Shown here piece by piece: positions 20,591-49,593 of a DNA stretch of 64,000 nucleotides. Within the stretch, counting starts at the first letter, position 1, and the number at the start of each line of letters is the position of its first letter. A program made the position numbers and the translations under genes. The stretch covers positions 13,150 through 77,149 of the forward strand of contig CAYJFZ010000005.1 of the NCBI GenBank assembly GCA_964369975.1, written 5' to 3'. The notes beneath the pieces are model-generated. The model was not told where the DNA came from. It worked only from the letters and a program-made list of their open reading frames with translations, and did not search any database. The stretch is from an uncultured Oscillospiraceae bacterium. GTDB lineage: Bacteria > Bacillota > Clostridia > Oscillospirales > Ruminococcaceae.

Positions 20591-20695
20591 GTTCATAAAA
20601 TAAAAACAATTTATTAATTTTGAGTTAAATATTTAATCAACTTTTTTTCACTACTTATCTATATACTTATAAGTGATAAAAGTTATTTAACTTAA

Positions 20696-20757
20696 AAGTG
20701 TTTTATACATTATTTTATTTCTCCTGAAAAAACAAGGCTCGCCCCGCCTTGTTTTTT
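20696..20757. repeat. copy A of a ~62-nt repeated element (conserved 17-mer, TCTCCT, CAAGGC/GCCTTG hairpin, T-run)
   Basis: Shares AAGTGTTTTATACATTA, TCTCCT and the CAAGGC...GCCTTGTTTTTT hairpin with 21079-21141. Confidence 0.8.
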
Positions 20758-20760
20758 CTT

Positions 20761-20904
20761 TTAATCTCTTTTAAAAATAGAAAAATTATCCTTTTTTTCT
20801 TCTAAATACAATTCTTCACATTCTTTTTGTGCATTTATTATTATATTAAGTGCCTTTTCGCTTTCTTTTAATAAATGATAATACATATCTTTATAAGTTG
20901 ACAT
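20761..20904 (-). CDS. 47-aa hypothetical protein (below the ORF-track size cutoff)
   Basis: Manual translation: MSTYKDMYYHLLKESEKALNIIINAQKECEELYLEEKKDNFSIFKRD. AGAGGTGAG RBS 5 nt upstream of the ATG; followed by the copy A hairpin acting as terminator. Confidence 0.5.
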   Translation of the reverse strand: MSTYKDMYYHLLKESEKALNIIINAQKECEELYLEEKKDNFSIFKRD

Positions 20905-21078
20905 AAGCTCACCTCTTTTTAATATTTTATCTAAAAGAAGTAAAAATATACTATAAATCTTAACTTGTGTATAATTTATGTTTCACTGTTTTTTCAAATG
21001 GAATACAAAAGTTTTTCACCTTTTAAGATTATAATTAAATCATAGCTTACAAAAGCTAAACGATACTAACTTCACTTT

Positions 21079-21141
21079 AAGTGTTTTATACATTAATATT
21101 CTCCTAAAGGCAAGGCTGTTCCCCTACAGCCTTGTTTTTTT
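21079..21141. repeat. copy B of the ~62-nt repeated element
   Basis: Same 17-mer, TCTCCT and CAAGGC...GCCTTG hairpin with T-run, immediately upstream of the promoter of the 680-aa membrane protein gene. Confidence 0.8.
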
Positions 21142-21211
21142 GCTTTATTTCGTATTTTATGGTATAATACCTTGCATTATAATGTTTAAATTATCAGTTC
21201 GGGAGATATAT

Positions 21212-23254
21212 ATGAGCTACCTATACGAAAAATTTAATAAAGCAAAAATATTTTTAAGTATACTATTTTTAAGTGTCTACCTTTTCATCACTCAAATAAG
21301 TGGGGGTAGTATTTTAGAGGTATTCTTATTTATAATTTGCTTTATTTTTAGCATTTTAGCTCCTGGATTTGTACTATATAAAATTTTTAAAATAGAAAAG
21401 TATATAAAAGATTTTGAATACCCTTTAGTATTCACTTTTGGCTGTGGATTTTTAGGTATTATATACGCTATTAGTGTGCGCTTAAGTCTTCATATTTTAA
21501 TGTATACTTTAATAGCTTTAGCTGTTTTTAGTGCTGTTTATATTTTAATAAAGGAAGACTATATCTCAAAATTTAAAAAAATAGACAAAACTCAATTTAT
21601 CTTTTTATTTTTTATTTTCAGCGCTTTGATATTTGTTTATGCTTTTATGGGTGTAAGCAAAAACGCTCACCCGACAGTAGTGGGAGAAATAAATTTGGGC
21701 CAAGATTTTTTATGGAATGTAGGCAATGCAGAAAGTTTTAAACTTAACTTTCCTCCTATTGATATAAGATTTTTTGATGTAAGGCTAAAATATCATTATT
21801 TAACAGAGTTATTAGTTAGCGCTTTTTCTTATTTAAGTGGTATATCAAGCTATAATATTATTGGCTTTTATTCGCAGTTAGTGTTTTTATTTAGCTTAAT
21901 TATCACTTTATATCTATTCACAAAAAATATATATAACTCCATACAAAAATCAAATATTTTCATCCTTTGTTTATTCTTTTTATCTTGCTTAAGTTTGCAT
22001 AAGGTATTTTTAACAGGGCAAAGTTTATTTGGGCATAACTTCTTATCTGCTGTTTTAACTAATGTAAACAGCATGTGTGTCGCATTAATATTCTTATGTG
22101 TATTTATTTTACTTTTTATTACATTAACAGAAAATGAGTATAAATTAAACATCGGCTATTTTTTTGTTTTAGTTGGTAGCTTTATACTCCTCACTTACTC
22201 AAAGTCGCCAATAGCTGCAATTGTCGCTATTGCTTTAGTAGCTTGTTTAGTTGCAAGATTTTTACAAGGAAAATTCATTTTAAAAGAAGTGCTTTTTACT
22301 TTAGGCTTATCCCTTGGATTTTTATGGCTATATACTATAGGCTTTTCTTCTGGTGCAAATGTATCAACGGGCTTTAGTTTTTCTTATACAATAGAGCTTA
22401 GCTACTTTTCAAACTATGTAAAAAATCTATGGATAACTCATAATTCTATTTACTTTTTAATCCTGCCGTTTTTTATGCTTTTTCAGACTTTTTGTATGAT
22501 GCCTTTCACTTTTACTATTTTTATTTTTAATGCTTTTAAAAGTGTTTTTTCTTATAAAAATTTATCATACTTAAATTTATTTTCTTATGCTGTGGGAATA
22601 GGCGGTATGATAGCATACTTTTTTTCATACCACGAAGCATATAGCCAAGTTTACTTTTTCTATATCGCCTTTTTCTTTATCACATTAGTGGCTGTGGATA
22701 AATTTGAGTTTAAAAAGCTCAATATTAAAAACGCACCTTTATATATCTTATTAATATTAAGCCTTTTAACAAGTATATTCTTTTATCTAAACTTTACAGG
22801 TTCTGGGCTAAGACAAGTATTATACAATCATGATATAATTCAAAAATACCCTTACCCTTATATCGTAAAAGCTGAAGATGAGTTAGCTGGTGAATACTTA
22901 AAAGGTGTAAATGAAGAAAACGCAATGTTCATCACTAACAGAACTCATACAGGCGCAAGCGAGGGCTTATCTAATGTTTACACAGCCTTTTCTGGTATGC
23001 AAAGCTATATGGAGGGGCATAAGTACACCTTATCTAATATGGGCGTAAGTATTGACATCATCGGGCATAGGTATTCTGTAATAAATACTATATTCTCAAA
23101 AGACACTTCCTTAGAAGATATTATCGCTTTATGTAAAGATAATAATATTATGTACATTGTTTATTCTTCGCAATTTGAAGGGGATACTCAGCAATTAGAA
23201 GCTCTTTTAAAGGTATTCAATGATGATACTGTCACTATTTATAAAGCATATTAA
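21212..23254 (+). CDS. large polytopic membrane protein with C-terminal soluble domain (possible GT-C-type glycosyltransferase/polymerase)
   Basis: About 15 hydrophobic helices followed by a ~150-aa hydrophilic C-terminal domain. Start moved to 21212 because a TTGCTT-17-TATAAT promoter lies inside the longer ORF and a GGGAGA RBS precedes this ATG. Functional class is a guess from architecture. Confidence 0.6.
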   Translation: MSYLYEKFNKAKIFLSILFLSVYLFITQISGGSILEVFLFIICFIFSILAPGFVLYKIFKIEKYIKDFEYPLVFTFGCGFLGIIYAISVRLSLHILMYTLIALAVFSAVYILIKEDYISKFKKIDKTQFIFLFFIFSALIFVYAFMGVSKNAHPTVVGEINLGQDFLWNVGNAESFKLNFPPIDIRFFDVRLKYHYLTELLVSAFSYLSGISSYNIIGFYSQLVFLFSLIITLYLFTKNIYNSIQKSNIFILCLFFLSCLSLHKVFLTGQSLFGHNFLSAVLTNVNSMCVALIFLCVFILLFITLTENEYKLNIGYFFVLVGSFILLTYSKSPIAAIVAIALVACLVARFLQGKFILKEVLFTLGLSLGFLWLYTIGFSSGANVSTGFSFSYTIELSYFSNYVKNLWITHNSIYFLILPFFMLFQTFCMMPFTFTIFIFNAFKSVFSYKNLSYLNLFSYAVGIGGMIAYFFSYHEAYSQVYFFYIAFFFITLVAVDKFEFKKLNIKNAPLYILLILSLLTSIFFYLNFTGSGLRQVLYNHDIIQKYPYPYIVKAEDELAGEYLKGVNEENAMFITNRTHTGASEGLSNVYTAFSGMQSYMEGHKYTLSNMGVSIDIIGHRYSVINTIFSKDTSLEDIIALCKDNNIMYIVYSSQFEGDTQQLEALLKVFNDDTVTIYKAY

Positions 23255-36926: not shown

Positions 36927-37180
36927 AAAAAACTTCGCCCCTATGAAAGGGACGAAGATTGTCTCCGTGGTACCACCCAAATTTTTGCTTTAGCAAAGTC
37001 CTGTTATCCAAACTCGTTTTATAAGGCTTTGTTTTACAAACACTCTTTGTGCATATAACGGTGCAAACCGGCAAAGCCTACTTAATTTCAACTCGCTTCT
37101 CCTAAGGGAACTTCAATTTTCTTTTTTTATGCTTTTTCAGCTACCAAGCACTCTCTACAAAAAAAAGATAAACCTACTTT
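36927..37180 (-). promoter_or_regulatory. T-box riboswitch leader (Phe specifier) of pheST
   Basis: Minus strand contains stem I AGAGAG element and a candidate UUC specifier in GAAGTTCCC. It also has the T-box sequence AATTTGGGTGGTACCACGG (plus 36965-36978 core) and a terminator CTTCGTCCCTTTCATAGGGGCGAAG plus T-run (36927-36958). Confidence 0.85.
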
Positions 37181-37205
37181 TCTTATTCACAGAATTTATC
37201 TTTTC

Positions 37206-37720: not shown

Positions 37721-37987
37721 TTAGTTAGGTTTGTAAGAAACAAGGTCTTGAGTCAAGCTGTCTAATACTTCCCCGTTTATTGTGTAGAAAACCCATCTAC
37801 TTTCTTTTCTGCTTGAAATCACTTCGCTATCACAAAGTATTTTCATGTGATGAGATAGTGTGGATTGGCCGATATTTAAGTTTTCTAAAATATCTCCTGC
37901 ACACAACTCGCCTTCTTTTAGAAGATCCATAATTTTTAATCTGTTTTCATCTCCTAATGCTTTTAAAACTCTTTCACGCTTTGTCAT
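37721..37987 (-). CDS. ArsR/SmtB-family transcriptional regulator
   Basis: LKALGDENRLKIMDLL...ELCAGDI...QSTLSHHMKIL winged-HTH; start at the ATG 8 nt after the AGGAGG RBS. Only one Cys in the position of the ELCVCDL metal site. Confidence 0.8.
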   Translation of the reverse strand: MTKRERVLKALGDENRLKIMDLLKEGELCAGDILENLNIGQSTLSHHMKILCDSEVISSRKESRWVFYTINGEVLDSLTQDLVSYKPN

Positions 37988-38155
37988 TCTTATAACCTCC
38001 TTTGCTATCATACCTCTATTTTTTTGTCAATTATATATGAAATGATATAACTGTTTACATATTCATTGTACTATATATATATTTCTAAACTATGTATTTA
38101 ACATTAATTTTCATCGCTTTTTCTATATATAAATATGCAGTTTCATTCATATTCT

Positions 38156-38836
38156 TTATTTTCTTAAGCCAGAATTTTTTCTTATAGGCGTGCTTTTCGC
38201 AGTGAACGAGCCAAAAAAATCTTCATAATTAATGACAGGAGCTACTGGTGTAGGGGTGTAAGTTTTAGTGCTTCTTGTAGTGGCAGCAGGTGTAGCATAA
38301 GCGCTATTAATGCTTGCGAGCTGACTTTGATAGCTTGCGTTTTGTTTTGCTATTTCTTCATTTCTTTTTGCAATTAATTCATTTAATTTACTTGTAAAAT
38401 AATCAATTATTTCATTTCTTGCAGATTGATACTTTGAATCAATACTCATTTGCATACTCTCTTGCGCTCCACCGCTTAAGCCTTGCATAGCAAGATTTGA
38501 GTCGATGTTGACTTTTTGCTTTTGGTTGTCTATATATTCATCTTTTAATAATTTTTCTTTTTGGGTTTGTATGTCTGCTTCTGAAGTATAATACTCATTA
38601 TTTATAGCTGCTAATTTTGAATCATTTTCACTTTTTGCAGCGTTTTGTTTATCTATTAAAGCTTGATTTACAATACCACTAACATCGTAAGATGTTTTAT
38701 TTTGTGTGTAAGTGTATGGAGTAACTTTTACTATTTTACTTGAAGTATTTTCTTGTTGTTGATCTTTAACTATCTTATCAAACTCTTCTTCTGTAATTTC
38801 CACATACTCCCCATTTTTATAAGTATAACTTGGCAT
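38156..38836 (-). CDS. hypothetical protein at the distal end of the phage-like island
   Basis: 226 aa, Q/N/K-rich predicted coiled-coil centre, T/P-rich C-terminal segment; no family recognised. Confidence 0.55.
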   Translation of the reverse strand: MPSYTYKNGEYVEITEEEFDKIVKDQQQENTSSKIVKVTPYTYTQNKTSYDVSGIVNQALIDKQNAAKSENDSKLAAINNEYYTSEADIQTQKEKLLKDEYIDNQKQKVNIDSNLAMQGLSGGAQESMQMSIDSKYQSARNEIIDYFTSKLNELIAKRNEEIAKQNASYQSQLASINSAYATPAATTRSTKTYTPTPVAPVINYEDFFGSFTAKSTPIRKNSGLRK

Positions 38837-38839
38837 TTT

Positions 38840-39154
38840 TTACTCCTTTACTTTTTCAAATTCATCTTTTACTATATCAAAAATACTATTTATGAATTCT
38901 TTTAATATCTCATCTGTAATTACCATTTGCAAGTATTTTGGCAGTATGCTATTTAATTTGCCGGCAACATAGCTTAGCTTTTCTTGTCCTACTTTTGTGC
39001 CGATGATGTTTTCTTCTGCCCATATAATGCTTTTGTAAACAAACTCTATTACATCTTCTTTTGCAAGTGTTTTATTTAATAATGCTTTTAAGATAATAAA
39101 AACACTTATTAAAATAATTATAAATGCTATTACAACTATTGCTTCATTACTCAT
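38840..39154 (-). CDS. small N-terminally membrane-anchored protein (lysis-cassette position)
   Basis: 104 aa, TM segment AIVVIAFIIILISVFIIL; overlaps the upstream gene stop. Confidence 0.5.
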   Translation of the reverse strand: MSNEAIVVIAFIIILISVFIILKALLNKTLAKEDVIEFVYKSIIWAEENIIGTKVGQEKLSYVAGKLNSILPKYLQMVITDEILKEFINSIFDIVKDEFEKVKE

Positions 39155-39408
39155 TTATATTGTTTCCTTTCTACATTTTTTATTCTACCATCGTAAATGG
39201 TTAATTTTTTTTCATGCTCATCTAATTTTGCATAAATTTTATTGTGGTTGTCGCTATTTTTTGCCTCTAATTTGCTTATTGTTTTCGCCATGTTATCAAC
39301 ACTTATCGTCAAATTTATTATTGTTGTGTTTAATTTGATAATAGGTGTCACTACTGTTTTAACAAAGGTAATTAAAGCTAAAACTGTAGTAAATACCACC
39401 CATTCCAT
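39151..39408 (-). CDS. holin-like protein (BhlA/UviB-like architecture)
   Basis: 85 aa: N-terminal TM (VVFTTVLALITFV) followed by a charged coiled-coil tail, directly downstream of the lysin gene. Confidence 0.45.
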   Translation of the reverse strand: MEWVVFTTVLALITFVKTVVTPIIKLNTTIINLTISVDNMAKTISKLEAKNSDNHNKIYAKLDEHEKKLTIYDGRIKNVERKQYK

Positions 39409-39426
39409 AAATTCATCCCTCTCTTT

Positions 39427-40236
39427 TTAATTTTTAAAAATCGCTTTAAAGAAATTGAAAATACTACTAAACATTGCCTTAAATAATCCAAATATACTAC
39501 TTAATATTGCTTTAAACAATTCGAATATACTTCTTACAATTACTAAAAGCAATTTAATTATAACTTCTAATAAAGGAAGATTGTCTTCATCTTGTGAATC
39601 TTCATCTTGTGAGTCTTCATCTTGTGAATCTTCATCTTGTGAGTCTTCATCTTGCTCTTCTTCAGGCTCTGGTGTTTGTGGCTCATCATCTTCTTCAAAG
39701 TCGAGTATCACTTCGCTTTCCCTTATCCAGTCATAACCACCGCTGTTTAAAATAATTACATCGTCGCCTAAAATAAACAATTTCTCTAAAGGATACTGAT
39801 TTTCTATAACATAGGTTTGGTATTCGTTTTTAAACTGGAGTATCTGCTCCCATTTCCCCTTGCCCGCTTCTATGTGCACATGTGAATTAAATGCGCTTGG
39901 GTTCCCACTTCCCATACCGCCTTCTGTATAAAAAAGCTGTCCTTGGCTTAGTATCTGCCCCTCATTTACTAAAAATTCGCTTGAATGAACACAAAGCAAT
40001 CTTAAATAATCGCTCGTACCATCTGCAAATAACACAGGGGCTATACTTTCAAAATACGCCTCACCATTAGCGTTATATCTAAGCCTTTTTACTATCATAT
40101 CGCAAGGGGCATATAAATTATCTTCCCCTGTGTCTTTGCCTCCAAAATCCATCGCCAAACTTCCTTTGTGAGAGTAAGAAGATCCCGCATTTTGCGTAAC
40201 TCTTAAATACTCCATAAAAAATTTACATAGTTGCAT
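39427..40236 (-). CDS. M23/LytM-like peptidoglycan peptidase (putative lysin) with acidic repeat linker and C-terminal amphipathic repeats
   Basis: SHKGSLAMDF and NSHVHIE resemble the HxxxD and HxH zinc motifs of M23 peptidases. (DEDSQ)x4 is encoded by 15-nt tandem repeats at 39584-39655. C-terminus has three SSIFxxFKAxF 11-mers. Confidence 0.6.
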   Translation of the reverse strand: MQLCKFFMEYLRVTQNAGSSYSHKGSLAMDFGGKDTGEDNLYAPCDMIVKRLRYNANGEAYFESIAPVLFADGTSDYLRLLCVHSSEFLVNEGQILSQGQLFYTEGGMGSGNPSAFNSHVHIEAGKGKWEQILQFKNEYQTYVIENQYPLEKLFILGDDVIILNSGGYDWIRESEVILDFEEDDEPQTPEPEEEQDEDSQDEDSQDEDSQDEDSQDEDNLPLLEVIIKLLLVIVRSIFELFKAILSSIFGLFKAMFSSIFNFFKAIFKN

Positions 40237-40297
40237 TATCTCATTCTCCTTTATATAAAAATGGCATTTTATACCTATTTTATATTATGCAAAAAGC

Positions 40298-41299
40298 TTA
40301 TTTTTGGTTTTCTTTTAGCATATTTTCTAATTCTAAAACTCTTTCATTTAGCTGTTTTATAGCCCCTACCATTGGCGATATTAATTCTTGATAATCCATT
40401 GAATAATTCATTTCACCTTCTTTAGTAATGTTTTCAAATTCTGTCACAATACCGTTATTGGTTTTTAGCTGTGTTTGTTGTATGGCTTGTAATACATCTT
40501 GGGCGATAAAGCCATATCGAGTAGTATTTTCTTCATCATCAATCATTACAAAAGATTTTGGTTTTAGTGCATAAATAAATTCTGCTGCCTTTTCTTGAGG
40601 TAAGCTTTCAATGTCTTTTTTTAATCTCATATCTGACTGAATTTCAAATTTTGAAGCTCTTACTCTTAAATACCCTGATGTATTATTATTTACAAAACTT
40701 GAGCCATAGGTGCTTTTAATATACATCTCACCAAATGTTTCTATACATTGTGGAGAGCTTACAACAACACTTGGGGCTTTTAATCCTTTATCAAATCCAA
40801 AAAATGGAGACCCGTTGTATGCACTTGCATACATATTATAGTTTTCTATCTCTTGTGTTTCTTCATCTATTTTAGAAATTACTATTTTTTCACCCGCTTG
40901 TAAGGCCTCTCCTTCGTTTAAAATGTGCATTATACCCACTTGTCCATCAAACAAGCCTAAATTTTGAATAGCTTGGGCATTTGTTGCTTCGTCTGCTATT
41001 TGTGCACTATCAACTTTTCCATCGCCATCTGTGTCATAGACTGCCTTCATCATGCTATCTTGCGTTGCAGTATCAATTTTTTCATCTATAACAATATCTG
41101 CTTGACTTTTTGTATACACTGTTTCTTTTTCTACTTCTAAAGTGTCGCATAAATCATTATGCTTATCCGCAACAAAACTTGTAAGCCTATCAAATACCAA
41201 TTTGTTTTCTCTTGCATCACCTTCTAAGACATCGGGTGCATTTACAACACCTAAGGTATCTTTATCATTTTGAGTTATTTTCAAGTTGTTAAAACTCAT
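40298..41299 (-). CDS. tail fibre protein with C-terminal intramolecular chaperone (peptidase S74) domain
   Basis: SDMRLKKDIESL...YGFIAQDV...ELISPMVGAIKQLNERVLELE matches the self-cleaving tail-fibre chaperone domain; YDTDGDGKVD motif in the shaft. Confidence 0.7.
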   Translation of the reverse strand: MSFNNLKITQNDKDTLGVVNAPDVLEGDARENKLVFDRLTSFVADKHNDLCDTLEVEKETVYTKSQADIVIDEKIDTATQDSMMKAVYDTDGDGKVDSAQIADEATNAQAIQNLGLFDGQVGIMHILNEGEALQAGEKIVISKIDEETQEIENYNMYASAYNGSPFFGFDKGLKAPSVVVSSPQCIETFGEMYIKSTYGSSFVNNNTSGYLRVRASKFEIQSDMRLKKDIESLPQEKAAEFIYALKPKSFVMIDDEENTTRYGFIAQDVLQAIQQTQLKTNNGIVTEFENITKEGEMNYSMDYQELISPMVGAIKQLNERVLELENMLKENQK

Positions 41300-43183
41300 T
41301 TAGTTATCTCCTTTCACATAATTTGTCGGTGTAAAGCATTTAATTAAGCTAAATACACCAAAGCCCTCGTTCTTTTCTTTATTTGAGAATATAAATTGTA
41401 CAGCTGTATAATTTTTAATTTTATGCTTTATTACGATAGTTCTTGCATTGTCGTCTGCTTCAAAAGTATATCTATTAAAATTTACATCTGAAAGATTTAA
41501 GATATCACAGGTATGTTTTAAAATTTCTACACCTTTTACATTATCTAAGGTTTTAGCGCTGATAGTTACAGAAGAGCGGGTAACGGGCTTTAAAGTTAAA
41601 ACGCAGCCTTTTTTACTCAAGGTTTTACTCATTAGCCCTAAGGCATCGTCATCCATTTTAGTCGACCATACAGCATTAATCGCCTTATCATCATCTGAAA
41701 ATCTTTCCATTGTAAATATGTCACTTTTGAATACGCAAATATTCCCATCATTATCTCCAAAGTATAATAAATCGTTCCAACTCATAAAGCAATTTGCATT
41801 TATCCCTTGCCAAAAATATGCTTCATACACAAAGTTGTCGTGCTTTGCTATATTACTTTTTTGCCTTGAGTCTAATAAGTAAACATTAGAGTTTACACTA
41901 ATTAGATAATAGCCTTGCCAAGTAAAGGCGACAGCATTTTCTATACCATCTTCATATATCAACTTATTATCTATAAAGTAAGAACGGTTTTGCACTGTTC
42001 TTTCGGCTGTTATGGCATTACTCGTTATTGCATAAACCCCTGTGTTTGATAAAAATAATGGCTCATCTACGAGCTGTGCAAAGCTATAAGGTGAAATAGC
42101 GCCTATGCCTGTAATACAGCCTTGTAGAGTAAATTTTAATTTTTCATCACTGTCAAAATAAGGACTTCTTAAAAAAATAGTTGTATCCTGACTGTTATCC
42201 TCTTTTACTACTATTAAATGTGAGCCAATTTTGCCATAGCCCATAATCTTTGTATTGCTACTTCCTACTATACTAAAATTTGTATCTCCAAAATAAGTAG
42301 GATCATTTGTATGGCAAAACCAGTCATAAGAAGGATAATTTTCATTACCTGTCACAAACACCCTTGTATCAGAACCCATACCAAAGAATGTATGCTTATT
42401 GCAATTTTTTATTTTACTTAAGGATTCATTATCAGTTTTTGCGTAAGTGATGAAGATATTATCCTCACCTATAATGCTACTTTTAGCTGGAGCTATGGTA
42501 AATGTAATCTTACCTAAAGCTCTATCAACTGTAAAGTTTGTCCCTTCTTTTAGAGTAGTCGTACTGCTTTCTGATATTTTTTGCTGAATTACAACTTCAG
42601 TTTCATCTAAATCTTTTGAAAAAACATAGTAAATCTTTTTAGTGCCATCAGCTGCAAATTTTTCCGTTCTTTTAGGTTGCAATAAATTTATAGCTTCTAA
42701 GGCTGTGCCACCACCATCAGGCGTTTTTGCAATGAGTGTAGTTGGAATATAAGCTACTTCGCTTACATCTTTTACACTGCTACCGTCGTATACTAAATAT
42801 TCTCTTCCTGTTAATATAAAGGCCTTTGTTTTATCTTCGTGAAAAGTAAAGAAGATGCTCGACTTTGCTCTGTTTAAGCCTTGATGAATTAAGACAGGTT
42901 CTTGTGAGTCAAAGCGATATAGCTTATCTCCGCAATGCGCTAAAAATGTTTTTTCACCTTCTATTTCGCCATTAGCAATGCAGTAAACAGTCTCACCTAA
43001 AGAAAACAAGGTTTTATATCCCATTCTTTTTTCTGGCATACCTGATTTATCTGAAATCATATTAACAGCATCAGGTGAGCGCTTTTCATCTACAAGCATT
43101 GCATCTTGACTAAAATCAACTCCTAAAAATTTATTATAAACTTGAGTCCTTAAAGATTTTTTTGCACTTACTTTAATAGGCAT
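41300..43183 (-). CDS. large tail structural protein (podovirus-type tail/nozzle or baseplate-like)
   Basis: 627 aa, beta-rich, located between head-completion genes and the tail fibre; family not recognised. Confidence 0.5.
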   Translation of the reverse strand: MPIKVSAKKSLRTQVYNKFLGVDFSQDAMLVDEKRSPDAVNMISDKSGMPEKRMGYKTLFSLGETVYCIANGEIEGEKTFLAHCGDKLYRFDSQEPVLIHQGLNRAKSSIFFTFHEDKTKAFILTGREYLVYDGSSVKDVSEVAYIPTTLIAKTPDGGGTALEAINLLQPKRTEKFAADGTKKIYYVFSKDLDETEVVIQQKISESSTTTLKEGTNFTVDRALGKITFTIAPAKSSIIGEDNIFITYAKTDNESLSKIKNCNKHTFFGMGSDTRVFVTGNENYPSYDWFCHTNDPTYFGDTNFSIVGSSNTKIMGYGKIGSHLIVVKEDNSQDTTIFLRSPYFDSDEKLKFTLQGCITGIGAISPYSFAQLVDEPLFLSNTGVYAITSNAITAERTVQNRSYFIDNKLIYEDGIENAVAFTWQGYYLISVNSNVYLLDSRQKSNIAKHDNFVYEAYFWQGINANCFMSWNDLLYFGDNDGNICVFKSDIFTMERFSDDDKAINAVWSTKMDDDALGLMSKTLSKKGCVLTLKPVTRSSVTISAKTLDNVKGVEILKHTCDILNLSDVNFNRYTFEADDNARTIVIKHKIKNYTAVQFIFSNKEKNEGFGVFSLIKCFTPTNYVKGDN

Positions 43184-43773
43184 TAAATATCAACTCCTTT
43201 TAATACTTCTACTGTCGGATTATAGCCACTCATTTTTAAAGAGGCTAATTTCATTTCGTAATCGTTATAGTAAATATCAGCCTTGTTTGCATCATCATCA
43301 CGGAAAACATAATAAGCCGCTAATAATGGTAGTAAAACGCTCACGCCAATATCAAAATTAAACTCTTCATCATCTTTTGTATCAACGCTTACTTGCACAG
43401 GCTTTGCCTCATACACAAAGGTATAAAGCCCTGTTGAGTAAACGATAATAGTATTGTTTAAAAGCTGAGTGTAGTCTGTATATTCAACGCTCTCATCTAA
43501 TACCTCATACCCACTTTGTGTTTTTTCATATTTTACTGTTTTATACACTTTAGAAAGTTTTAAAAAACCTTCATCTATATCTTTTAAATTAATTGAAGCA
43601 ACACTTTGCAAAACTTCAACATCTGCCATTTTCAAAAAAGGCTTATATTCAAAGGCAATAGCATTAATGCTCCTATTAATAGCAGAAATTAAGATGTTTG
43701 CATCTTCTGTATAAGTTAGTGGTGTTTCAAATCCTAAGGATAAAATTTCTTCTTTTAGCTGTTTGTAAGTCAT
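43183..43773 (-). CDS. phage structural protein (possible head-tail adaptor)
   Basis: 196 aa, position downstream of the capsid gene; start overlaps the neighbour. Confidence 0.4.
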   Translation of the reverse strand: MTYKQLKEEILSLGFETPLTYTEDANILISAINRSINAIAFEYKPFLKMADVEVLQSVASINLKDIDEGFLKLSKVYKTVKYEKTQSGYEVLDESVEYTDYTQLLNNTIIVYSTGLYTFVYEAKPVQVSVDTKDDEEFNFDIGVSVLLPLLAAYYVFRDDDANKADIYYNDYEMKLASLKMSGYNPTVEVLKGVDI

Positions 43774-43785
43774 AAGGAAGCCTCC

Positions 43786-44001
43786 TTATATATACATAGC
43801 TTTTTCCAAAAGTTTTTTAACACTTAGAGTAACTTTATAATCTTTGCCTCTTTCAAACATCTCTTTTTTAGAGTTGATGCAAATAACTACATTTTCATCG
43901 CTTTTGTTAAGTGGATCTTTAGGAATTCTCACTAAAAATAAATCTTTTTCTTTTGCTGGTTTACTCGCTTGTTTTTCATTTGTATCTATAATATTATTCA
44001 T
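43786..44001 (-). CDS. small phage protein, unknown function
   Basis: 71 aa ORF with AAGGAGAA RBS directly after the post-capsid hairpin. Confidence 0.5.
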   Translation of the reverse strand: MNNIIDTNEKQASKPAKEKDLFLVRIPKDPLNKSDENVVICINSKKEMFERGKDYKVTLSVKKLLEKAMYI

Positions 44002-44017
44002 AATTTTCTCCTTTATT

Positions 44018-44043
44018 ATTCAGCCTGCTTTTGCAGGCTGAAT
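44018..44043 (-). promoter_or_regulatory. perfect 11-bp-stem hairpin immediately downstream of the major capsid gene
   Basis: ATTCAGCCTGC TTTT GCAGGCTGAAT; lies 12 nt after the capsid stop and 16 nt before the next start. Confidence 0.7.
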
Positions 44044-44055
44044 ATTAATTATTAA

Positions 44056-44991
44056 TTAAACAGTCGCTGCTGTTTCTATTCTTACTATTGCCATTTCATT
44101 TAAGCGTTTTACAGCCATAAGAGCTTTCCAACCAGCTGAAGCTCTTTGCTCAAGCGGGTCAGCAGAGCCAGATGAGCCTGCGTCTTTAATGATAACTTTT
44201 GGTGCTGTTAATTCGCCTTCAAGGTCAATACAACCATAAGCATCTTTTGCTACTATAACAGTAGAATGTACATCTACATTGTTTGCATTTGTTAAAGTTT
44301 GCGTATTAGTTGTATCAATAAATCTTACACCGTGTAAACGACCTATTTCGCCTTTTTCAATGTTTGTACCGCCGTTGTATTTACTTACATCTTGCCATAG
44401 TGGATCTCTTTGCAAATCATAGGCTACATTATGGTTAATAAAGCCGTAGAAATAGCCTGAATCCATAGGTTTTGCATTAGCGTTTCTTAAAGTTCTCACT
44501 GCTTTTTGAATTAACTCAGATGTAATTACATCTGTTTTAGCAATATCATCTATGTCAGTTATAGTTGTTTTTGGGAATTGTACATTTGTACCATTTGACA
44601 CTTCTCTCATTGCTAAAGTATCTAAGGTAAGCGCTGCTTGCTCGCCTAAAACATTTGCTGTTTCAGTAAGTACTGGGTCAATACCTAATAAGTTTAATTT
44701 AGATGAAATTTTTACAAAATCGCCGTACTCCTGTACTTGCGCTGTTAAGTTAGTAACATCTAAGGATTTGCCATCTGGTGTCACTCCCTCTGTTAGTGGT
44801 GTAGTATTTACAGATAAAGAGTTAAATCTTCTAAAACTTACTTGACCACCTGAATTTTTAGGCATAGTTCTTTTTTGCCCGTATTTTAGCCACACTAAAT
44901 TCGGAACTAATCTTTCAAGAAGGGTTCTATCATAAAATGTTGCATTTTCCGCTGTTAAATTTTGATATGTTTGTACTGGTGCTTGTGCCAT
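44056..44991 (-). CDS. major capsid protein (HK97 fold, N4-gp56-like family)
   Basis: N-terminus FYDRTLLERLVPNLVWLKYGQKRTMPKNSGGQVSFRRFNSL matches my recollection of the N4-gp56-family capsid signature; preceded by a scaffold-like gene. Confidence 0.75.
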   Translation of the reverse strand: MAQAPVQTYQNLTAENATFYDRTLLERLVPNLVWLKYGQKRTMPKNSGGQVSFRRFNSLSVNTTPLTEGVTPDGKSLDVTNLTAQVQEYGDFVKISSKLNLLGIDPVLTETANVLGEQAALTLDTLAMREVSNGTNVQFPKTTITDIDDIAKTDVITSELIQKAVRTLRNANAKPMDSGYFYGFINHNVAYDLQRDPLWQDVSKYNGGTNIEKGEIGRLHGVRFIDTTNTQTLTNANNVDVHSTVIVAKDAYGCIDLEGELTAPKVIIKDAGSSGSADPLEQRASAGWKALMAVKRLNEMAIVRIETAATV

Positions 44992-45017
44992 ATTTTTTTC
45001 TCCTTTTTATTTTAAAA

Positions 45018-45503
45018 TTACATTAATTCGCCTCTTAAGGCTTTTTGAACTTCAGTTAAGAATTCATCTCTTGACATTGCTTTGAATCTATCAGGTTTTT
45101 CAAAGTTATTCGCTTGTTTAATATCGCCTGTAGATGGTTGTAGATTTTTCATTTGATTAATTGCAGAGTACGCTACTTTTACTGGGATGTTTTCGTTTCT
45201 TAATTTTAAGTAACTTGTTAAGTCAATATCGTCAAAAGAGCTAATTGTTTTATCTTCTTTTTTAAGCTCTATTAACTCTTGTTGCATAAGCATATCTACA
45301 AGAATATTTTTTAATACTTCGTTTTCATTAACTAAAAGCATAACATCTTGTACACTAAACTCATTTGCTACTTGCTGAGTGTTTTGCTTGCCCATTACTT
45401 CTTCACTAACAGCATTTAAAATTTGCTCTTTTGCTATTTCTTCATTTTGTAGCTGTTCATTAGCTATTGCAATATCATCTTTTTTTTGCTTTGTTTTTTC
45501 CAT
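45018..45503 (-). CDS. scaffolding protein
   Basis: 161 aa, acidic and helical, located between the portal and capsid genes. Confidence 0.55.
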   Translation of the reverse strand: MEKTKQKKDDIAIANEQLQNEEIAKEQILNAVSEEVMGKQNTQQVANEFSVQDVMLLVNENEVLKNILVDMLMQQELIELKKEDKTISSFDDIDLTSYLKLRNENIPVKVAYSAINQMKNLQPSTGDIKQANNFEKPDRFKAMSRDEFLTEVQKALRGELM

Positions 45504-45514
45504 ACTTCCTCCTA

Positions 45515-47056
45515 TTAAATTTGCTTTTGTGTGATTTCTTCATTTACATTCGCATCACCTTTTCGTTTTTCCAATATTCTTTCTAAGTCCGCCTTAGGTA
45601 CAGCAGAGGTATCATCGATAAGCGATACATATTCATCAAAGGTTATCGCCCCTTTATTGAATAAATTATCAAGTGATAACTGCCTACTTAATCGGCTGTA
45701 TGGGTCAATTGGAGAAACATCTATTCTTAAATCGATATCTTTATACAAAATATCTTCTTTAAGCAAAGTTTTGCCGTCTATAGTGCTGACGGTCTTTGGG
45801 CTATAAGCAAATATCATATTTTGCCATACGATAGCCACATCTTCTAAAAACTGTTTAAATCCTGAGATATGCTCATTTAAGGCTACTGCTGATTGATCTC
45901 TTGCAGCTTTAATAGCCTCGCCACTCGCCTTTGTTGGGTCAACTTGCCCTGTCGCTGCATCTGAAGCGCCTTCAAGCTCCCTTGTTATGTTTAATAACTC
46001 ATTTTGTAAGTACTGCGCATCTGGTGATATAGATACAGGCTTTAAGTAGTCTATCAAAGTTGAAATAGGATTTTGAATTTGATTTTTAACAGCTATAAGT
46101 CCGCCTACTGTATCAATATTTTGAATTTTGCTTACTCTATCTTTGTCATAAACAATACTCGGATAAGCGTATCTTTTAGTACTTATAGCCCTTCTTGTTG
46201 CAGTTTTATTTATTTCAATTTGATTTTCTATTAGCCCTTCAAGGCCGGACAAGCCTCTTATTGAGCCTATTTTTTCTTCCCATTTCATCTGCGCTATTGG
46301 ATATAAACTTAAATCTTTTACAGTTTTTAAGGGTGAGTAAATAACTCCCTTAACACTTCTTAAAAACGTAAGCCCATCTTTTGTTTTTTCTAAATACAGT
46401 ATGCTTGTACATTTTCCTTCTTGTGTTTTTACTTCATTATAATTTTCATAAAACTGTGCACTTGAAACATCATCAGATACTATTAAATCAATTTTTTCTT
46501 TTGACAGTTTATTCTTTTTAGCTATTTCTTTTACATAGCTTACAGGTAGGCGTTCTTCTATAATTATGTATTGCTGACTTTGCAAATCATCGTTTTGCTC
46601 ATCTGCAAAAAATATCCCTGAAGGATTAACTATCCTATTTTTAAAATATAAGTCTTTGTCATTTTCATCTTTAGAGTTAAATGTGTATAAGTAAACATCT
46701 CCAAAAATAAAGCTCCTTTTAATGATGTCCCAGCATAATTTATCAAACTTTGACTTTTCCCACTGCCTTAAAGAAAAGTCATTTAAAAACTCACAAACAG
46801 TGTTTAGTTTTTCATCGCTACTTTTAGTATTAAAAACTATTTGCATAGCACTTTGAGCTATCATCGAGATTTTATACTTACCAATAGGCTTTATAAAATT
46901 TAAAGCTATAAGTGGCTGATTTTGATGCTCTAAGCCCTCCCACTGCCTGCCCTCGTAAAAATTTAAGTTTCTTTTATTTTTTAAAAAGACATTGTTCTGC
47001 CTGTGGTTTTCAAGGCCTTGTTCATACCTTTTCCAATAAATATTTTCGTTTTGCAT
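45515..47056 (-). CDS. portal protein
   Basis: 513 aa, position after TerL, size and composition typical of portals. Confidence 0.7.
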   Translation of the reverse strand: MQNENIYWKRYEQGLENHRQNNVFLKNKRNLNFYEGRQWEGLEHQNQPLIALNFIKPIGKYKISMIAQSAMQIVFNTKSSDEKLNTVCEFLNDFSLRQWEKSKFDKLCWDIIKRSFIFGDVYLYTFNSKDENDKDLYFKNRIVNPSGIFFADEQNDDLQSQQYIIIEERLPVSYVKEIAKKNKLSKEKIDLIVSDDVSSAQFYENYNEVKTQEGKCTSILYLEKTKDGLTFLRSVKGVIYSPLKTVKDLSLYPIAQMKWEEKIGSIRGLSGLEGLIENQIEINKTATRRAISTKRYAYPSIVYDKDRVSKIQNIDTVGGLIAVKNQIQNPISTLIDYLKPVSISPDAQYLQNELLNITRELEGASDAATGQVDPTKASGEAIKAARDQSAVALNEHISGFKQFLEDVAIVWQNMIFAYSPKTVSTIDGKTLLKEDILYKDIDLRIDVSPIDPYSRLSRQLSLDNLFNKGAITFDEYVSLIDDTSAVPKADLERILEKRKGDANVNEEITQKQI

Positions 47057-47067
47057 ATACCCTCCTT

Positions 47068-47271
47068 TTACATCCCATTGTAATCATCTATATTTTTAAG
47101 AGTCAGCATTACCTCATCTTGCGCTTGCTCTTTTTCTTCTTTTTCTAAAAAATTAGTTGCTACAACAGGAATATCGTTTTTAATTTTCGCTTTATCGCTA
47201 AGTCCCAGCCTATAAGCATAAATAACCATAAAAGGCATTATTAGCGATAAAAAGCAAATTAATATCTCCAT
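47068..47271 (-). CDS. small membrane-anchored protein between terminase and portal
   Basis: 67 aa, N-terminal TM ILICFLSLIMPFMVIYAY, acidic tail. Confidence 0.45.
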   Translation of the reverse strand: MEILICFLSLIMPFMVIYAYRLGLSDKAKIKNDIPVVATNFLEKEEKEQAQDEVMLTLKNIDDYNGM

Positions 47272-47272
47272 T

Positions 47273-48637
47273 TTATTCCTCTCTTTCTATGTAATCTTCC
47301 CTTACATATAAGGCAATTAATAAAGCCATTACTAAATCATCATGCACTCCTTTAGCTGCCTCAATTCTTCCTTGTTCATTTTTAATAAAGTTTAGCATCT
47401 CATTTAAGGTATCTTTATCGTTTATCCCACTTACGCTTTTACGAAGCAGTCTAATTCCATTAGCTATAATAAGTGGGCGGGTGAATTTATCTGTTATAAA
47501 ACCGTAGCTTAGCACAGGTTTTTGAGTTATGGTATCTAAGCGCTTTCGCATATAAATATTAGAATAATTTAATCTTTCAAGCTCCTTATTAGGATAGCTT
47601 GAGAAGTTTGCTTCTACTACTATTAGCGCCTTATTATAAAGCTCTCCTAAGCAAAACAGTTGCTTTGCAAATAAATCCTCATCGTAAGTTTGATAAAGCC
47701 TTGCTACTTGCTTTGCAGAGTTTACCTCTATAACTTGAGCTGCAAATTTATCATCTCCCTCTCCTGCTGTATCCGCTGCGATTATATAAAGCTGTTCAGT
47801 TTTGGGATACTCATATATATTGATACCACCGCTGTCTAAATCCACCCACTTTATGTTTAAAAGGGATGATAATTTTTCTGTGTACATAAAATCGCCTGTT
47901 CTTAGTGGAGTTAAATCATCTAAAAGCCTTTGCGAAATTAAATTAGTATTAAAAACGCTTTGCCCATATACTCCCCACTGCCCCAAACAGTACACCTTAT
48001 AATAGTAAGGGTCTGTTATCCTAAAGGCTTCTAATTGATTTTTGTACTCGTTATCTAAAAACTCATTATCTTTATATGTAGTATGTACTACTTGCATGTT
48101 TTCTTCTTTATAATCAAAAAACCTTGCTTTTAGCCAATGTGAAACACTAATAGGATTAAATGTAATAACTATCTGTTTTTTACTCTTGCCCCCACGCAGC
48201 CTTAAGTTGAGTTGGTTAAAATCTTCTCTTGTAATTTCGCTTGCTTCCTCTATCCAAATATGTGTCATTTCTCCATTTTTAAAAGTGATTGATTTTAACT
48301 TCTCCACATCATCAAGACCATAAAAAACGACTTGATTTGAGTTAATACAGCTTATTCTCATATCACTCATATTTGCTTTAAATAAGCTACTTAAATTCCA
48401 ATCTTGTATAACTTGCAATAGCTGTGCAAATGTTGAGTCTCTATTGGTTTTACCTACAGCCCTTACTACGAGCAGGTTACATTTTTTCTCTTTTAAGAGC
48501 AAGTAAATAAACCTTTGAGCACAAAACATACTTTTACCACTGCCAGCGCCGCCATAAAAAATTAAAAACCTTTTATCATTTTCAAGATATGGTAAATAAA
48601 CTTTATTAAACACTTTTTTACTAATCGTTATTTTCAT
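47273..48637 (-). CDS. terminase large subunit
   Basis: Walker A GGAGSGKS, Walker B-like HIWIEEA, C-terminal RNaseH-like nuclease with AADTAGEGDD and HDDLVMAL. Confidence 0.88.
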   Translation of the reverse strand: MKITISKKVFNKVYLPYLENDKRFLIFYGGAGSGKSMFCAQRFIYLLLKEKKCNLLVVRAVGKTNRDSTFAQLLQVIQDWNLSSLFKANMSDMRISCINSNQVVFYGLDDVEKLKSITFKNGEMTHIWIEEASEITREDFNQLNLRLRGGKSKKQIVITFNPISVSHWLKARFFDYKEENMQVVHTTYKDNEFLDNEYKNQLEAFRITDPYYYKVYCLGQWGVYGQSVFNTNLISQRLLDDLTPLRTGDFMYTEKLSSLLNIKWVDLDSGGINIYEYPKTEQLYIIAADTAGEGDDKFAAQVIEVNSAKQVARLYQTYDEDLFAKQLFCLGELYNKALIVVEANFSSYPNKELERLNYSNIYMRKRLDTITQKPVLSYGFITDKFTRPLIIANGIRLLRKSVSGINDKDTLNEMLNFIKNEQGRIEAAKGVHDDLVMALLIALYVREDYIEREE

Positions 48638-48645
48638 TTTCCCTC

Positions 48646-48963
48646 TTAATCTGTTAGTTTTACAATTATTTCACCTTGCTTTGTATCCGCCTGTTCTAAA
48701 AAATCATTTTCTAAAACAAACTTTGCACCACCGCTTAAGTTTTTATCATACAAAGCCTTACTATTCATATCCTCAAGATGCAATAAGCATAAATTAACTC
48801 CAAACTTTAACTTCTCATCATTTTTTAATTGTAAGAAGGCTTCTTTGCTCTCAATACCAAGGTAAAGGGCAAGGCCTGCTAAAGTTGGGATTTCTTGACT
48901 ATTAAAGTATTCGCATGCTTTTTCATATAGTATTTTAGACGATGTAAATTTTGCATTTTTCAA
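48646..48963 (-). CDS. terminase small subunit
   Basis: 105 aa, TTG start 8 nt after the AAGGGAGG RBS; IPTLAGLALYLGI HTH typical of small terminases; immediately upstream of TerL. Confidence 0.6.
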   Translation of the reverse strand: MKNAKFTSSKILYEKACEYFNSQEIPTLAGLALYLGIESKEAFLQLKNDEKLKFGVNLCLLHLEDMNSKALYDKNLSGGAKFVLENDFLEQADTKQGEIIVKLTD

Positions 48964-49479
48964 ACTATCTAACCTCCCTTGCTTTTAATTCTAAGTGAGA
49001 AAAAACTTTTATCTCCATTTATTTCGATTTTTCTTTTTTTTGTGAAAAATGCACTATTTATTAGTTTGTCGGTACTCCAAAAAGTACAGATAATTTTGTC
49101 AGATTTTGTCGAATGCTATTTTTGCAAGGTATTGAAATAAAATTTATTTCTAAAAATCGAAATACTTTTTATTCCAAAATTAATAAATCTTTTACTTTTT
49201 TCTTTTAAAAAATTACTCTTTTTATTTTTTAATATAAAAATTTGCAAAAAAAAATAAGCTACATCTAAAATTAGATATAGCTTAAACATTGTTTTTTTAT
49301 TTTGATTTTGCTACTGATAATTAAATCAGTAATTCATATTTTAAATTTTCTTTTTTTAGTTAATAAAGGCTATCTTTTTTAATCACTATTTAAAATGGCT
49401 TAAGTTTTACTTTATACTTTTATTTTTTATATTCTATATTATTATTCACCATATACCTTATATTAAAATAATTTAAAAC

Positions 49480-49515
49480 AAAAAAAATCACTTAAAGCAA
49501 ATTTGCTTTAAGTGA
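49480..49515 (-). terminator. rho-independent terminator of tRNA-Lys
   Basis: TCACTTAAAGCAAA / TTTGCTTTAAGTGA 14-bp stem followed (minus strand) by a T-run. Confidence 0.85.
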
Positions 49516-49517
49516 TG

Positions 49518-49593
49518 TGGTGAGCCATCGGAGACTCGAACTCCGGACACCCTGATTAAAAGTCAGGTGCTCTGCCAGCTGAGCTAATGGCTC
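49518..49593 (-). tRNA. tRNA-Lys (anticodon UUU), CCA encoded
   Basis: Minus strand GAGCCATTAGCTCAGCTGGCAGAGCACCTGACTTTTAATCAGGGTGTCCGGAGTTCGAGTCTCCGATGGCTCACCA folds as a cloverleaf; anticodon loop CTTTTAA. Confidence 0.93.

Follow-up and report, generated by a model that had tools for sequence, protein, structure and literature searches.

Gene transfer agents (GTAs) of the RcGTA type, in Alphaproteobacteria, carry the signature of domestication: a head-tail gene cluster lacking genes for replication or integration, which is inherited vertically, kept under purifying selection and expressed under the control of the host. They are siphovirus-like, have no scaffold, keep their lysis and accessory genes elsewhere, and their small terminase subunit (TerS) has lost its DNA-binding domain. 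PBSX of Bacillus subtilis, an element of the myovirus type of ∼28 kb, has a contractile tail and encodes its own regulators. The known GTA families are few, and those of the podovirus type were recognized only in 2024-2026, from gut virome data. One of these, FpGTA of Faecalibacterium prausnitzii, was described by Borodovich et al. (Nat Commun 2026, preprint November 2024; PMC12946183). Its operon I, of 10.5 kb, encodes TerS, the large terminase subunit (TerL), a portal, a scaffold-position protein, a major capsid protein (MCP) of the N4-gp56 family, an adaptor and a nozzle (8eap); operon II, of 5.5 kb and located 125 kb from operon I, encodes a fibre, a receptor-binding protein, a holin and an endolysin; and particles were demonstrated, with ∼40-nm capsids containing 8.4-8.9 kb (∼8.5 kb) of evenly sampled host DNA (PMC12946183). 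Further candidates of 12-14 kb, including some in an Oscillospiraceae genus, were reported from gut Clostridia in a July 2026 preprint (bioRxiv 10.64898/2026.07.08.737213). Here we analyse a gene cluster of similar organization, hereafter the island, found in a 64,000-nucleotide stretch (the window, to which all positions refer) of an uncultured Oscillospiraceae bacterium (assembly GCA_964369975.1, contig CAYJFZ010000005.1, positions 13,150 to 77,149).

The island consists of 14 co-directional open reading frames (ORFs) on the minus strand (38156-48963), between an ArsR gene and a tRNA-Lys gene, with junctions of -4 to +61 nt. The products are TerS, TerL, a portal, a scaffold, an N4-gp56-family capsid protein, an adaptor, a nozzle, an S74 fibre, an M23 hydrolase resembling phi29 gp13 and a holin-like protein, plus four proteins to which no function was assigned. 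We consider it probable that the island is a domesticated, chromosomally fixed derivative of an Oscillospiraceae podovirus of ∼31-43 kb, and that its single 14-gene operon still builds a DNA-filled short-tailed particle and lyses the producing cell, i.e. that it is a GTA-like element of the kind of FpGTA. We regard the locus as domesticated, vertically inherited and selected because it ends at the same junction in several genomes, diverges together with its hosts, has low ratios of nonsynonymous to synonymous substitution (dN/dS), uses the codons of the host and possesses a conserved control region. A preliminary description of the window had already proposed a GTA-like or otherwise domesticated locus, and the proposal passed the computational tests, with no hidden integrase or replication function, no att duplication, a conserved locus and low dN/dS. 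All 14 ORFs were recovered where it had placed them; its remark that no podovirus-like GTA had been described in Clostridia-type Firmicutes is outdated by FpGTA (PMC12946183). The island would join the recently recognized podovirus-type GTA-like elements of Oscillospirales, among which its single-operon layout is unusually compact.

The likeness to FpGTA is extensive. Both belong to Oscillospirales and have an MCP of the N4-gp56 family (TIGR04387 in the island; same family name for the FpGTA MCP, RCH50849.1), both show the order TerS-TerL-portal-scaffold-MCP-(small gene)-adaptor-nozzle with a nozzle of the 8eap (P22 gp10) fold, and in both a core operon of ∼10-11 kb, without replication or integration genes, is conserved across species of a genus-level group. 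However, the two-locus layout of FpGTA is not found here, since the fibre, hydrolase and holin genes are contiguous with the head genes, also in the four full-length copies described below. Moreover, the FpGTA TerS was described as having no obvious DNA-binding domain whereas that of the island matches the P22 gp3 family, and the FpGTA scaffold-position protein is annotated as Prp, a match that the island scaffold does not give. FpGTA particles and their packaged DNA have been shown, those of the island are predicted, and the two elements were compared by their descriptions. No Faecalibacterium-named protein occurs among the 120 closest matches of the MCP or of the nozzle, so that identity to FpGTA is probably below ∼55%. 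With PBSX the island shares the character of a Gram-positive defective prophage which keeps its head and terminase genes (TIGR01547 TerL), packages host DNA and is released by lysis, the last two being predictions for the island; but it is of 11 kb, short-tailed and without a regulator gene. RcGTA structural genes are unrelated to those of the island.

Conservation, inheritance and selection

Five further copies were found, all in metagenome-assembled genomes (MAGs) labelled as uncultured Oscillospiraceae (study ERP123703), with a nozzle 64% and an MCP 83-85% identical to those of the window and a GC content of ∼30-31%, like that of the window. Four (L010-L013) are full-length and come from four distinct GTDB species representatives, and the fifth (L017; GCA_964571025.1, contig CAZNAY010000076.1) is partial. 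The four full-length copies have the gene set and gene order of the window, and all their syntenic genes are intact at a synonymous divergence of ∼0.3-1.9 or saturated; no integrase was found in any copy of the island. In all five copies whose contigs are long enough (the window and four MAGs), the ArsR gene lies directly downstream and the island ends at an ArsR-acpS junction, with pheS next in the three MAG contigs that extend that far. At the other end, the four full MAG copies all have upstream of the island the 3′ end of a gene for a giant MBG_2 surface protein, with an inserted single gene at this place in two of them; the window differs. No further copies came up when JGI metagenome contigs and IMG/VR were scanned for the profile of the island MCP, but only two short peptide patterns were used, and therefore divergent copies could be missed. 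Exact-sequence look-ups with the MCP and nozzle of the window matched no recorded contig.

Host and island genes diverge alike. Between the window and the MAGs, identity is 83-84% for PheS, 73% for PheT and 65% for AcpS, and 84-85% for MCP, 79-81% for TerL, 72-73% for the portal and 64% for the nozzle. For both gene sets the window is the most distant member and L012/L013 are the closest pair, and across pairs the dN of island genes is correlated (r 0.89-0.96) with the dN of the adjacent host genes. The dN/dS values, all obtained by the NG86 method only, are 0.04-0.2 for the head, packaging and tail-core genes, as compared to 0.04-0.15 for pheS and 0.14-0.36 for acpS, and are approximate for pairs of the window with the MAGs, in which dS is saturated. 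Amelioration is complete: the GC content of the island (0.321) equals that of the window, GC at third codon positions is 0.245 versus 0.240, and relative synonymous codon usage correlates at r 0.95. The preliminary description had proposed a comparison with related species, which turned out as expected for a domesticated locus: the gene set occurs in five more genomes, at the ArsR-acpS site in 4/4 of the contigs reaching it, with dN/dS well below 1 and a divergence parallel to that of host genes. Two properties by which GTAs are recognized are therefore present: structural and packaging genes reside in the host chromosome without genes for replication, integration or excision, and they are vertically inherited under purifying selection, in six genomes, of which one, partial, has a frameshift in TerL.

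These data bear directly on the possibility that the island is an inert remnant of a prophage once integrated at tRNA-Lys, which would have lost its lysogeny and replication modules and have no present function. The 3′ end of tRNA-Lys does face the island in the window genome, the related phages are complete genomes of 31-43 kb, and the TerL frameshift would be a sign of decay. But all 14 window ORFs and the syntenic genes of the four full MAG copies are intact with dN/dS of 0.04-0.2, the control region is conserved, amelioration is complete, there is no att scar, and the MAG copies have no tRNA nearby. We thus disfavour this explanation, which seems very unlikely.

Several points, beside the saturation of dS, weigh against the reading of the island as a functional GTA-like element. 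In one of the six copies (L017 510-545), a 1-nt deletion changes CCTAATAAAGAA to CCTATAAAGAA and shifts the frame of TerL at about residue 350, the remainder continuing in another frame; either this lineage has truly begun to decay or the MAG consensus contains an error. The host genes used in the comparison are mostly immediate neighbours of the island and could hitch-hike with it if the whole region recombined. Five of the only six known genomes come from one study, and an empty site was not found in a close relative. TerS resembles a pac-specific family (P22 gp3), and packaging may accordingly be non-random. Since the giant internal or ejection-type proteins of the related phages (1679-1808 aa) are missing, DNA delivery may be impaired. 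Finally, expression, particles, DNA packaging and transfer are, in this lineage, predictions from sequence.

No sign of mobility was detected. In the island and up to ∼20 kb from it, searches with Pfam, PHROGs, NCBIfam and PADLOC revealed no gene for an integrase, a repressor or replication, and 0/14 ORFs matched recombinase, CI/Cro, replication, tube, sheath or tape-measure families; the absence of integrase and replication functions, as noted in the preliminary description, thus extends to the ORFs it had left unassigned. Nor did the duplicated tRNA-Lys 3′ segment whose presence at the far boundary would indicate integration turn up: the att search gave no tRNA-Lys fragment and no direct repeat of at least 12 nt linking the island ends, the longest common k-mer being an AT-rich one of 11 nt. 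None of the attributes of an intact temperate prophage (integrase, att duplication, lysogeny switch, replication module) is therefore present. A further explanation to be considered is that of a helper-dependent satellite, comparable to the capsid-forming phage-inducible chromosomal islands (cf-PICIs), for which a co-resident phage would provide excision and replication while the island packages itself. The island is compact and has its own terminase and capsid genes, and a similar 12.7-kb cluster from Butyricicoccaceae has been likened to capsid-forming satellites (bioRxiv 10.64898/2026.07.08.737213). However, it has no integrase, Rep/primase, regulator or att site, and so differs from cf-PICIs as they are defined; it encodes a tail and lysis proteins of its own, whereas satellites normally borrow these functions; it occupies a fixed locus and has co-diverged with its host over several species; and it was not found, with two short peptide patterns, in IMG/VR or in the scanned JGI metagenome contigs. 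A satellite is, in our opinion, extremely unlikely.

Phage relatives and origin

Outside the six-genome clade, identity falls abruptly, from 83-85% to at most 62% for the MCP (4559 matches, E <1e-30) and from 64% to at most 51% for the nozzle. The relatives examined there are phage genomes or contigs of 31-43 kb or larger prophage modules, in which genes for Rad52, G39P, Mom or HTH_3 are found and which encode giant virion proteins, either an 1808-aa LPD38 protein or a 1230-aa TNT protein. The preliminary description had argued that homologues always sitting inside larger complete prophages would contradict domestication; beyond the clade they do indeed occur in this way, but within it they do not. 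Among cultured phages the best relative is Bacillus phage Page, with an MCP 42% identical and a virion module of 24.6 kb including a 1679-aa protein. Taken together, the Bacillus phages Page, Pony and Pascal (Pagevirus) and uncultured gut podophages of 31-43 kb resemble the island in the MCP (42% for Page to 60-62% for the uncultured phages), the nozzle (31-51%) and the portal (24-43%), as well as in the order of the head and tail-core genes and in a hairpin after the MCP gene. Unlike the island, they have genes for replication, recombination and regulation, and their virion module is much larger, with proteins of 1679-1808 aa. The TerL and TerS of the island are of a different lineage from those of the phages with the closest MCP. 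Because its relatives are larger phage genomes or modules, and because its terminase is of another lineage, the island is, as judged from these alignments, a pared-down mosaic derivative of the N4-gp56-capsid podophage group of 31-43 kb. Some 'Bacteriophage sp.' records of 11-12 kb, of the MT836150 type, match the island in size, but these were rejected as relatives, being apparently unannotated fragments of metagenome scaffolds; the one that was compared (L001) shares only the capsid gene, at ∼40%.

Two features of the relatives may be mentioned on their own account. In three phage contigs of 31-35 kb with an MCP 56% identical (L018, at 16563-19360, L019 and L020), the tail/lysis region contains a radical-SAM enzyme gene beside that of a small protein with a faint match to the tSAM_targ_Cxxx repeat, and the two may constitute a modification pair like those of ribosomally synthesized and post-translationally modified peptides within a phage virion module. 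In a prophage-like module with a nozzle 47% identical (L027, at 16426-21822; GCA_030625685.1), proteins of 1230 aa and 327 aa with weak TNT matches are followed by an Imm59-like gene, and the module may thus encode a virion protein that bears a toxin, along with the corresponding immunity protein.

Packaging, head and tail genes

Genes were assigned by hidden Markov model searches (Pfam, PHROGs, NCBIfam) and by structure prediction with Foldseek; the latter was needed because PDB searches by sequence alone were empty for the nozzle, adaptor, MCP and TerS. The packaging and head features are, in the order of transcription:

48646..48963, minus strand: TerS, small terminase, 105 aa, P22 gp3 family (PF16677 GP3_package, 5e-9; dN/dS 0.07-0.29)
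47273..48637, minus strand: TerL, large terminase, 454 aa, PBSX/Terminase_3 family (Terminase_3, 2e-54; TIGR01547, PBSX family)
47068..47271, minus strand: 67-aa protein with an N-terminal transmembrane (TM) helix; orthologues in every island copy
45515..47056, minus strand: portal, 513 aa (P22_portal, 3e-11; phrog_156; dN/dS 0.07-0.15)
45018..45503, minus strand: scaffold, 161 aa, so placed between portal and MCP; no database family match
44056..44991, minus strand: MCP, 311 aa, N4-gp56 family, HK97 fold (TIGR04387, 245 bits versus a cut-off of 60; phrog_1357, 1e-75)
44017..44044, no strand assigned: 12-bp GC-rich hairpin just past the capsid gene (terminator scan)
43786..44001, minus strand: 71-aa protein (phrog_15239); an equivalent small gene follows the MCP gene in related phages

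TerL and MCP are 79-81% (dN/dS 0.06-0.10) and 84-85% (dN/dS 0.04-0.09) identical to their MAG orthologues, respectively. For TerS, the best Foldseek matches were to P22 gp3 (3p9a), with a probability of 0.97 but a weak E-value of 0.26, the single-sequence model being poor past residue 72. Its TTG start codon (48961-48963, minus strand) and the strong, identical ribosome-binding site before it (GAGGGAGG; GAGGGAGGTT) are kept in five genomes (the window and L010-L013), and this conserved non-ATG start suggests a TerS translation tuned to a low level. The 67-aa protein gave no match in Pfam, PHROGs or PADLOC; a small gene occupies the same position in related phages. The hairpin past the MCP gene is probably an attenuator which sets capsid stoichiometry, and Bacillus phage Page has an annotated terminator at the equivalent position.

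The C-terminal half of the scaffold aligns to the C-terminus of a 233-aa phage scaffold (L018, residues 161-231; profile E 3e-5). Scaffolds of the island clade are of 135-161 aa versus 233-263 aa in the nearest phages and have kept only this C-terminal region, their N-terminal part being ∼70-100 aa shorter; in a profile alignment the portals, of 483-515 aa versus 567-603 aa, are likewise shorter by ∼70-100 aa. The shorter scaffold and portal, together with the loss of the giant internal proteins, suggest a smaller capsid, even though such features are not diagnostic.

The remaining genes of the operon encode the tail and lysis proteins and a last protein of 226 aa:

43183..43773, minus strand: head-to-tail adaptor, 196 aa (PF24175 SU10_adaptor, 1.7e-6, above the gathering score; dN/dS 0.09-0.24)
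41300..43183, minus strand: tail nozzle, 627 aa, beta-propeller (phrog_3287, 'virion structural protein'; dN/dS 0.05-0.19)
40298..41299, minus strand: tail fibre, 333 aa, with a C-terminal S74 intramolecular chaperone (PF13884 Peptidase_S74, 8e-13; phrog_1980)
39427..40236, minus strand: M23 peptidoglycan hydrolase, 269 aa (residues 1-171 versus residues 166-327 of the phi29 gp13 M23 domain, PDB 3csq_A, E 4e-13; phrog_11037)
39151..39408, minus strand: 85-aa protein with an N-terminal TM helix and a coiled coil (phrog_1009; weak Rz-like spanin match)
38840..39154, minus strand: holin-like protein, 104 aa (PF09682 Holin_LLH, 3.7e-4, below the cut-off; phrog_15303, 1.6e-13; phrog_6918 holin, 1e-4)
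38156..38836, minus strand: 226-aa helical protein, last island gene, in all full-length copies (MAG homologues 238-242 aa)

The AlphaFold2 model of the 627-aa protein (58 homologues; mean predicted local distance difference test score 89.8) matched podovirus nozzles in Foldseek with E-values of 1e-14 to 1e-17 (9k09_U, 9jyz_P (T7 gp12), 7z4b (SU10), 8eap_D (P22 gp10) and GP4), and the protein is accordingly modelled as a podovirus-type tail nozzle. Only the first ∼100 aa of the fibre are conserved among genomes, the C-termini being swapped. The N-terminal domain of the hydrolase is of the type of phi29 gp13, a tail-associated wall hydrolase, and is followed, at residues ∼185-269, by a perfect acidic repeat (DEDSQ; QDEDS x4-5) and then by a ∼50-aa hydrophobic, amphipathic and lysine-rich tail. 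Two MAG orthologues have this tail in a shortened form and two others have a coiled coil in its place; it could anchor the protein in the membrane or act on membranes. C-terminal modules of the hydrolase vary by genome, and in L011 the M23 domain is fused to GH25. Such modular exchange of the fibre and hydrolase ends is the pattern expected of parts that contact target cells. The 85-aa protein is a candidate lysis accessory protein. Besides the fibre, the 226-aa protein is the fastest-evolving syntenic product (dN/dS 0.2-0.7); it had no match in Pfam, PHROGs, NCBIfam or PADLOC, and a phmmer search of 1.84 billion representatives gave strong matches in the island clade only, the weak ones, limited to the central region, being to unnamed proteins, some of them on contigs of ∼41-43 kb. 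Conceivable analogues are a needle or plug like P22 gp26 and the FpGTA protein annotated as 'TolA'.

The exchange of fibre tips between species is also what strain-specific targeting would predict, and it leads to another possibility: that the island produces a PBSX-like killer particle, domesticated and DNA-filled but delivering no DNA, and selected to kill or damage competitors, or for programmed lysis, through fibre binding and the M23 hydrolase of the tail. The assignment of TerL to the PBSX terminase family, the tail-associated phi29 gp13 type of the wall hydrolase and the absence of the ejection-type giant proteins of related phages are all compatible with this, and the FpGTA authors keep the option open for their own element (PMC12946183). 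On the other hand, a short non-contractile tail offers no obvious killing mechanism except wall hydrolysis, and the strong purifying selection on TerS and TerL shows that packaging matters, though this is likewise the case in PBSX. To our knowledge, there is no podovirus-type tailocin. Neither is the island a tailocin in the usual sense of a tail whose head and terminase have been lost, given that it has intact genes for TerS, TerL, portal, scaffold and MCP on which purifying selection acts. We hold a killer particle to be unlikely and keep to the GTA-like reading.

The control region upstream of TerS

Five genomes (the window and L010-L013) have in common, amid otherwise unalignable AT-rich DNA, a series of elements upstream of TerS. 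In the window these are:

49255..49284, minus strand: terminator-like hairpin with a T-run (terminator scan), at the upstream edge of island conservation, ∼200 bp past the tRNA-Lys terminator
49145..49164, no strand assigned: operator-like inverted repeat (palindrome TATTTC-N8-GAAATA), with a single occurrence in the 64-kb window
49039..49114, minus strand: non-coding control block ATTCGACAA-N5-GACA, GTACyTTTT-NN-AGTAC, GTGCAT-N5-ACAAA, blocks invariant in five genomes
48988..48993, minus strand: -10-like hexamer TAGAAT (TATACT in the MAGs), from promoter scan and alignment, with no conserved -35

A 57-aa ORF at 49116-49289 is probably spurious, since the sequence under it consists of conserved elements of a non-coding kind. 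An equivalent hairpin, with TTTTTTTGCA, is present upstream of TerS in 4/4 MAG loci and probably insulates the operon from tRNA-Lys read-through. The palindrome recurs in L010, L012 and L013, and nearly so in L011, where it would be expected from the window. One match per sequence is no more than chance would give (1.0 expected), and the evidence lies in its conserved position. The motifs of the control block occur nowhere else in the window or in the respective loci, and the block may be where an activator or other regulator binds, or else a pac-related site. Expression may be under host control. The island itself has no regulator gene, this non-coding region is conserved in five genomes, and the region would be a regulator- or activator-dependent operon promoter. 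Two other readings were rejected: an RNA element in the conserved leader (consensus fold of -4.7 kcal/mol, no covariation, no Rfam match) and recognition of the GTGCAT..ACAAA block by a sporulation sigma factor (SigK/SigE-like), with which spacing and conservation do not fit.

Packaging could also be initiated in situ and directionally from a pac site, in a manner resembling lateral transduction: TerS would recognize a site in or near the island and the headful series would run into the adjacent chromosome, so that neighbouring core genes would be favoured. The TerS, on which purifying selection acts, belongs to the P22 gp3 family, which is sequence-specific; its gene has conserved phased repeat motifs beside it, the island is unable to excise, and broad coverage peaks of ∼150 kb have been reported for an Oscillospiraceae GTA candidate (bioRxiv 10.64898/2026.07.08.737213). 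But no pac site was identified, the conserved motifs, which lie upstream of the promoter-like region, are equally explained as regulator sites, and FpGTA packages the chromosome evenly. This variant appears to us quite unlikely.

Proposed mode of action and implications

At this point we may propose how a GTA-like island could operate. A host signal acting on the control region (palindrome, phased GACA repeats, GTAC-N8-GTAC element, -10 without -35) would switch the operon on, probably in a subpopulation of cells. Procapsids would be made from the portal, the shortened scaffold and the N4-gp56-type capsid protein, and TerS (P22 gp3 family) and TerL (PBSX family, headful type) would fill them with DNA, which should be chromosomal because the island can neither excise nor replicate. 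The adaptor, nozzle, fibres and gp13-like M23 wall hydrolase would then complete a short tail, lytic release would be brought about by the holin-like protein, the 85-aa membrane protein and the hydrolase, and fibres with exchangeable tips would target related cells. Expression, packaging substrate, capsid capacity, release and DNA delivery are all predictions of this scheme; the strong constraint on TerS and TerL argues that DNA packaging is part of the selected function.

A more speculative proposal, which is possible but which we make only tentatively, is that of a domestication separate from that of FpGTA. It would have given the most compact self-contained GTA known, a single 11-kb, 14-gene operon for head, short tail, wall-piercing enzyme and lysis, kept since before the split of two low-GC Oscillospiraceae lineages and driven by host factors through an activator-type control region, perhaps with directional packaging from a fixed site in view of the retained pac-type TerS. 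A second lineage of this kind would be informative, as the whole particle programme is contained in one small operon with a clear comparative-genomic signature of domestication and a conserved control region, and it would help to set sequence criteria by which GTAs in Clostridia can be told from prophage debris. From it one would further learn which podovirus parts are dispensable for a transfer particle, namely the giant internal proteins, the long scaffold and the portal extensions. The island offers a minimal gene set for reconstitution, and it supports the view that capsid-mediated mobilization of host DNA in Oscillospirales rests on several domesticated elements.

Boundaries and flanking genes

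The island is bordered by two host genes:

49518-49593, minus strand: tRNA-Lys(UUU), with its own promoter and terminator (49487-49516), its 3′ end pointing at the island
37721-37987, minus strand: ArsR/SmtB-family regulator (PF01022), 88 aa with the start Met (MAG orthologues 87 aa)

Both flanks are core, as had been stated before, with housekeeping genes on either side to ∼20 kb. Past ArsR come acpS, on the opposite strand, a T-box leader and pheS-pheT; spoVS, ymdB and rny lie on the tRNA-Lys side; and the other cellular genes include thrS, htrA, two-component systems, ychF, a periplasmic-binding-protein-like gene and a histidine kinase. The T-box leader (37022-37199, minus strand; Rfam RF00230, 95.8 bits) represents ordinary regulation of an aminoacyl-tRNA synthetase operon and confirms the left flank as core. 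It was, with tRNA-Lys, the only hit of an Rfam scan of the region. PADLOC gave no defence match in the island, and its Csa3 matches of ArsR were discarded as generic winged helix-turn-helix similarity.

The ArsR protein is 85-87% identical to its MAG orthologues over the full length. Other Oscillospiraceae have orthologues at 57-63% identity, in a different location and without the island. A role of ArsR as operator-binding regulator of the island is unsupported, since the 49145-49164 palindrome is missing from the ArsR-orthologue loci L023-L026 and since these orthologues occur without the island. The spacer between the island and ArsR (38012-38155 and its equivalents in L010-L013), in which a terminator scan of the window found none, contains a conserved motif, AAATTAATGGAAATGTAATGATTTAGAAA in the MAGs and similar in the window, which may be an ArsR promoter or operator.

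In the 42%-GC Oscillospiraceae genome of L023 (ENA ERZ28019155 k141_813741, at 13972-15533) and in L024, an orphan pair consisting of an 84-aa ORF and a 435-aa large terminase gene lies between host genes (GATase, serine dehydratase), ∼4 kb from the ArsR orthologue. The ATPase is distantly related to the island TerL (profile E 4e-9), and the pair could either belong to a dispersed GTA-like system or represent a remnant.

The tRNA-Lys(UUU) gene is the sole tRNA gene of the 64-kb window and adjoins the island in the window genome only; a tRNA scan of the island loci of the MAGs found none. In island-free Oscillospiraceae (L025, at 9036-10003, and L023, at 9441-10003), a tRNA-Lys(CUU) gene on the opposite strand precedes the ArsR orthologue. 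L025 has in addition two truncated copies of the 3′ end of this tRNA (TGGTGCACCATCAGG...), which resemble att scars of past integrations at that tRNA.

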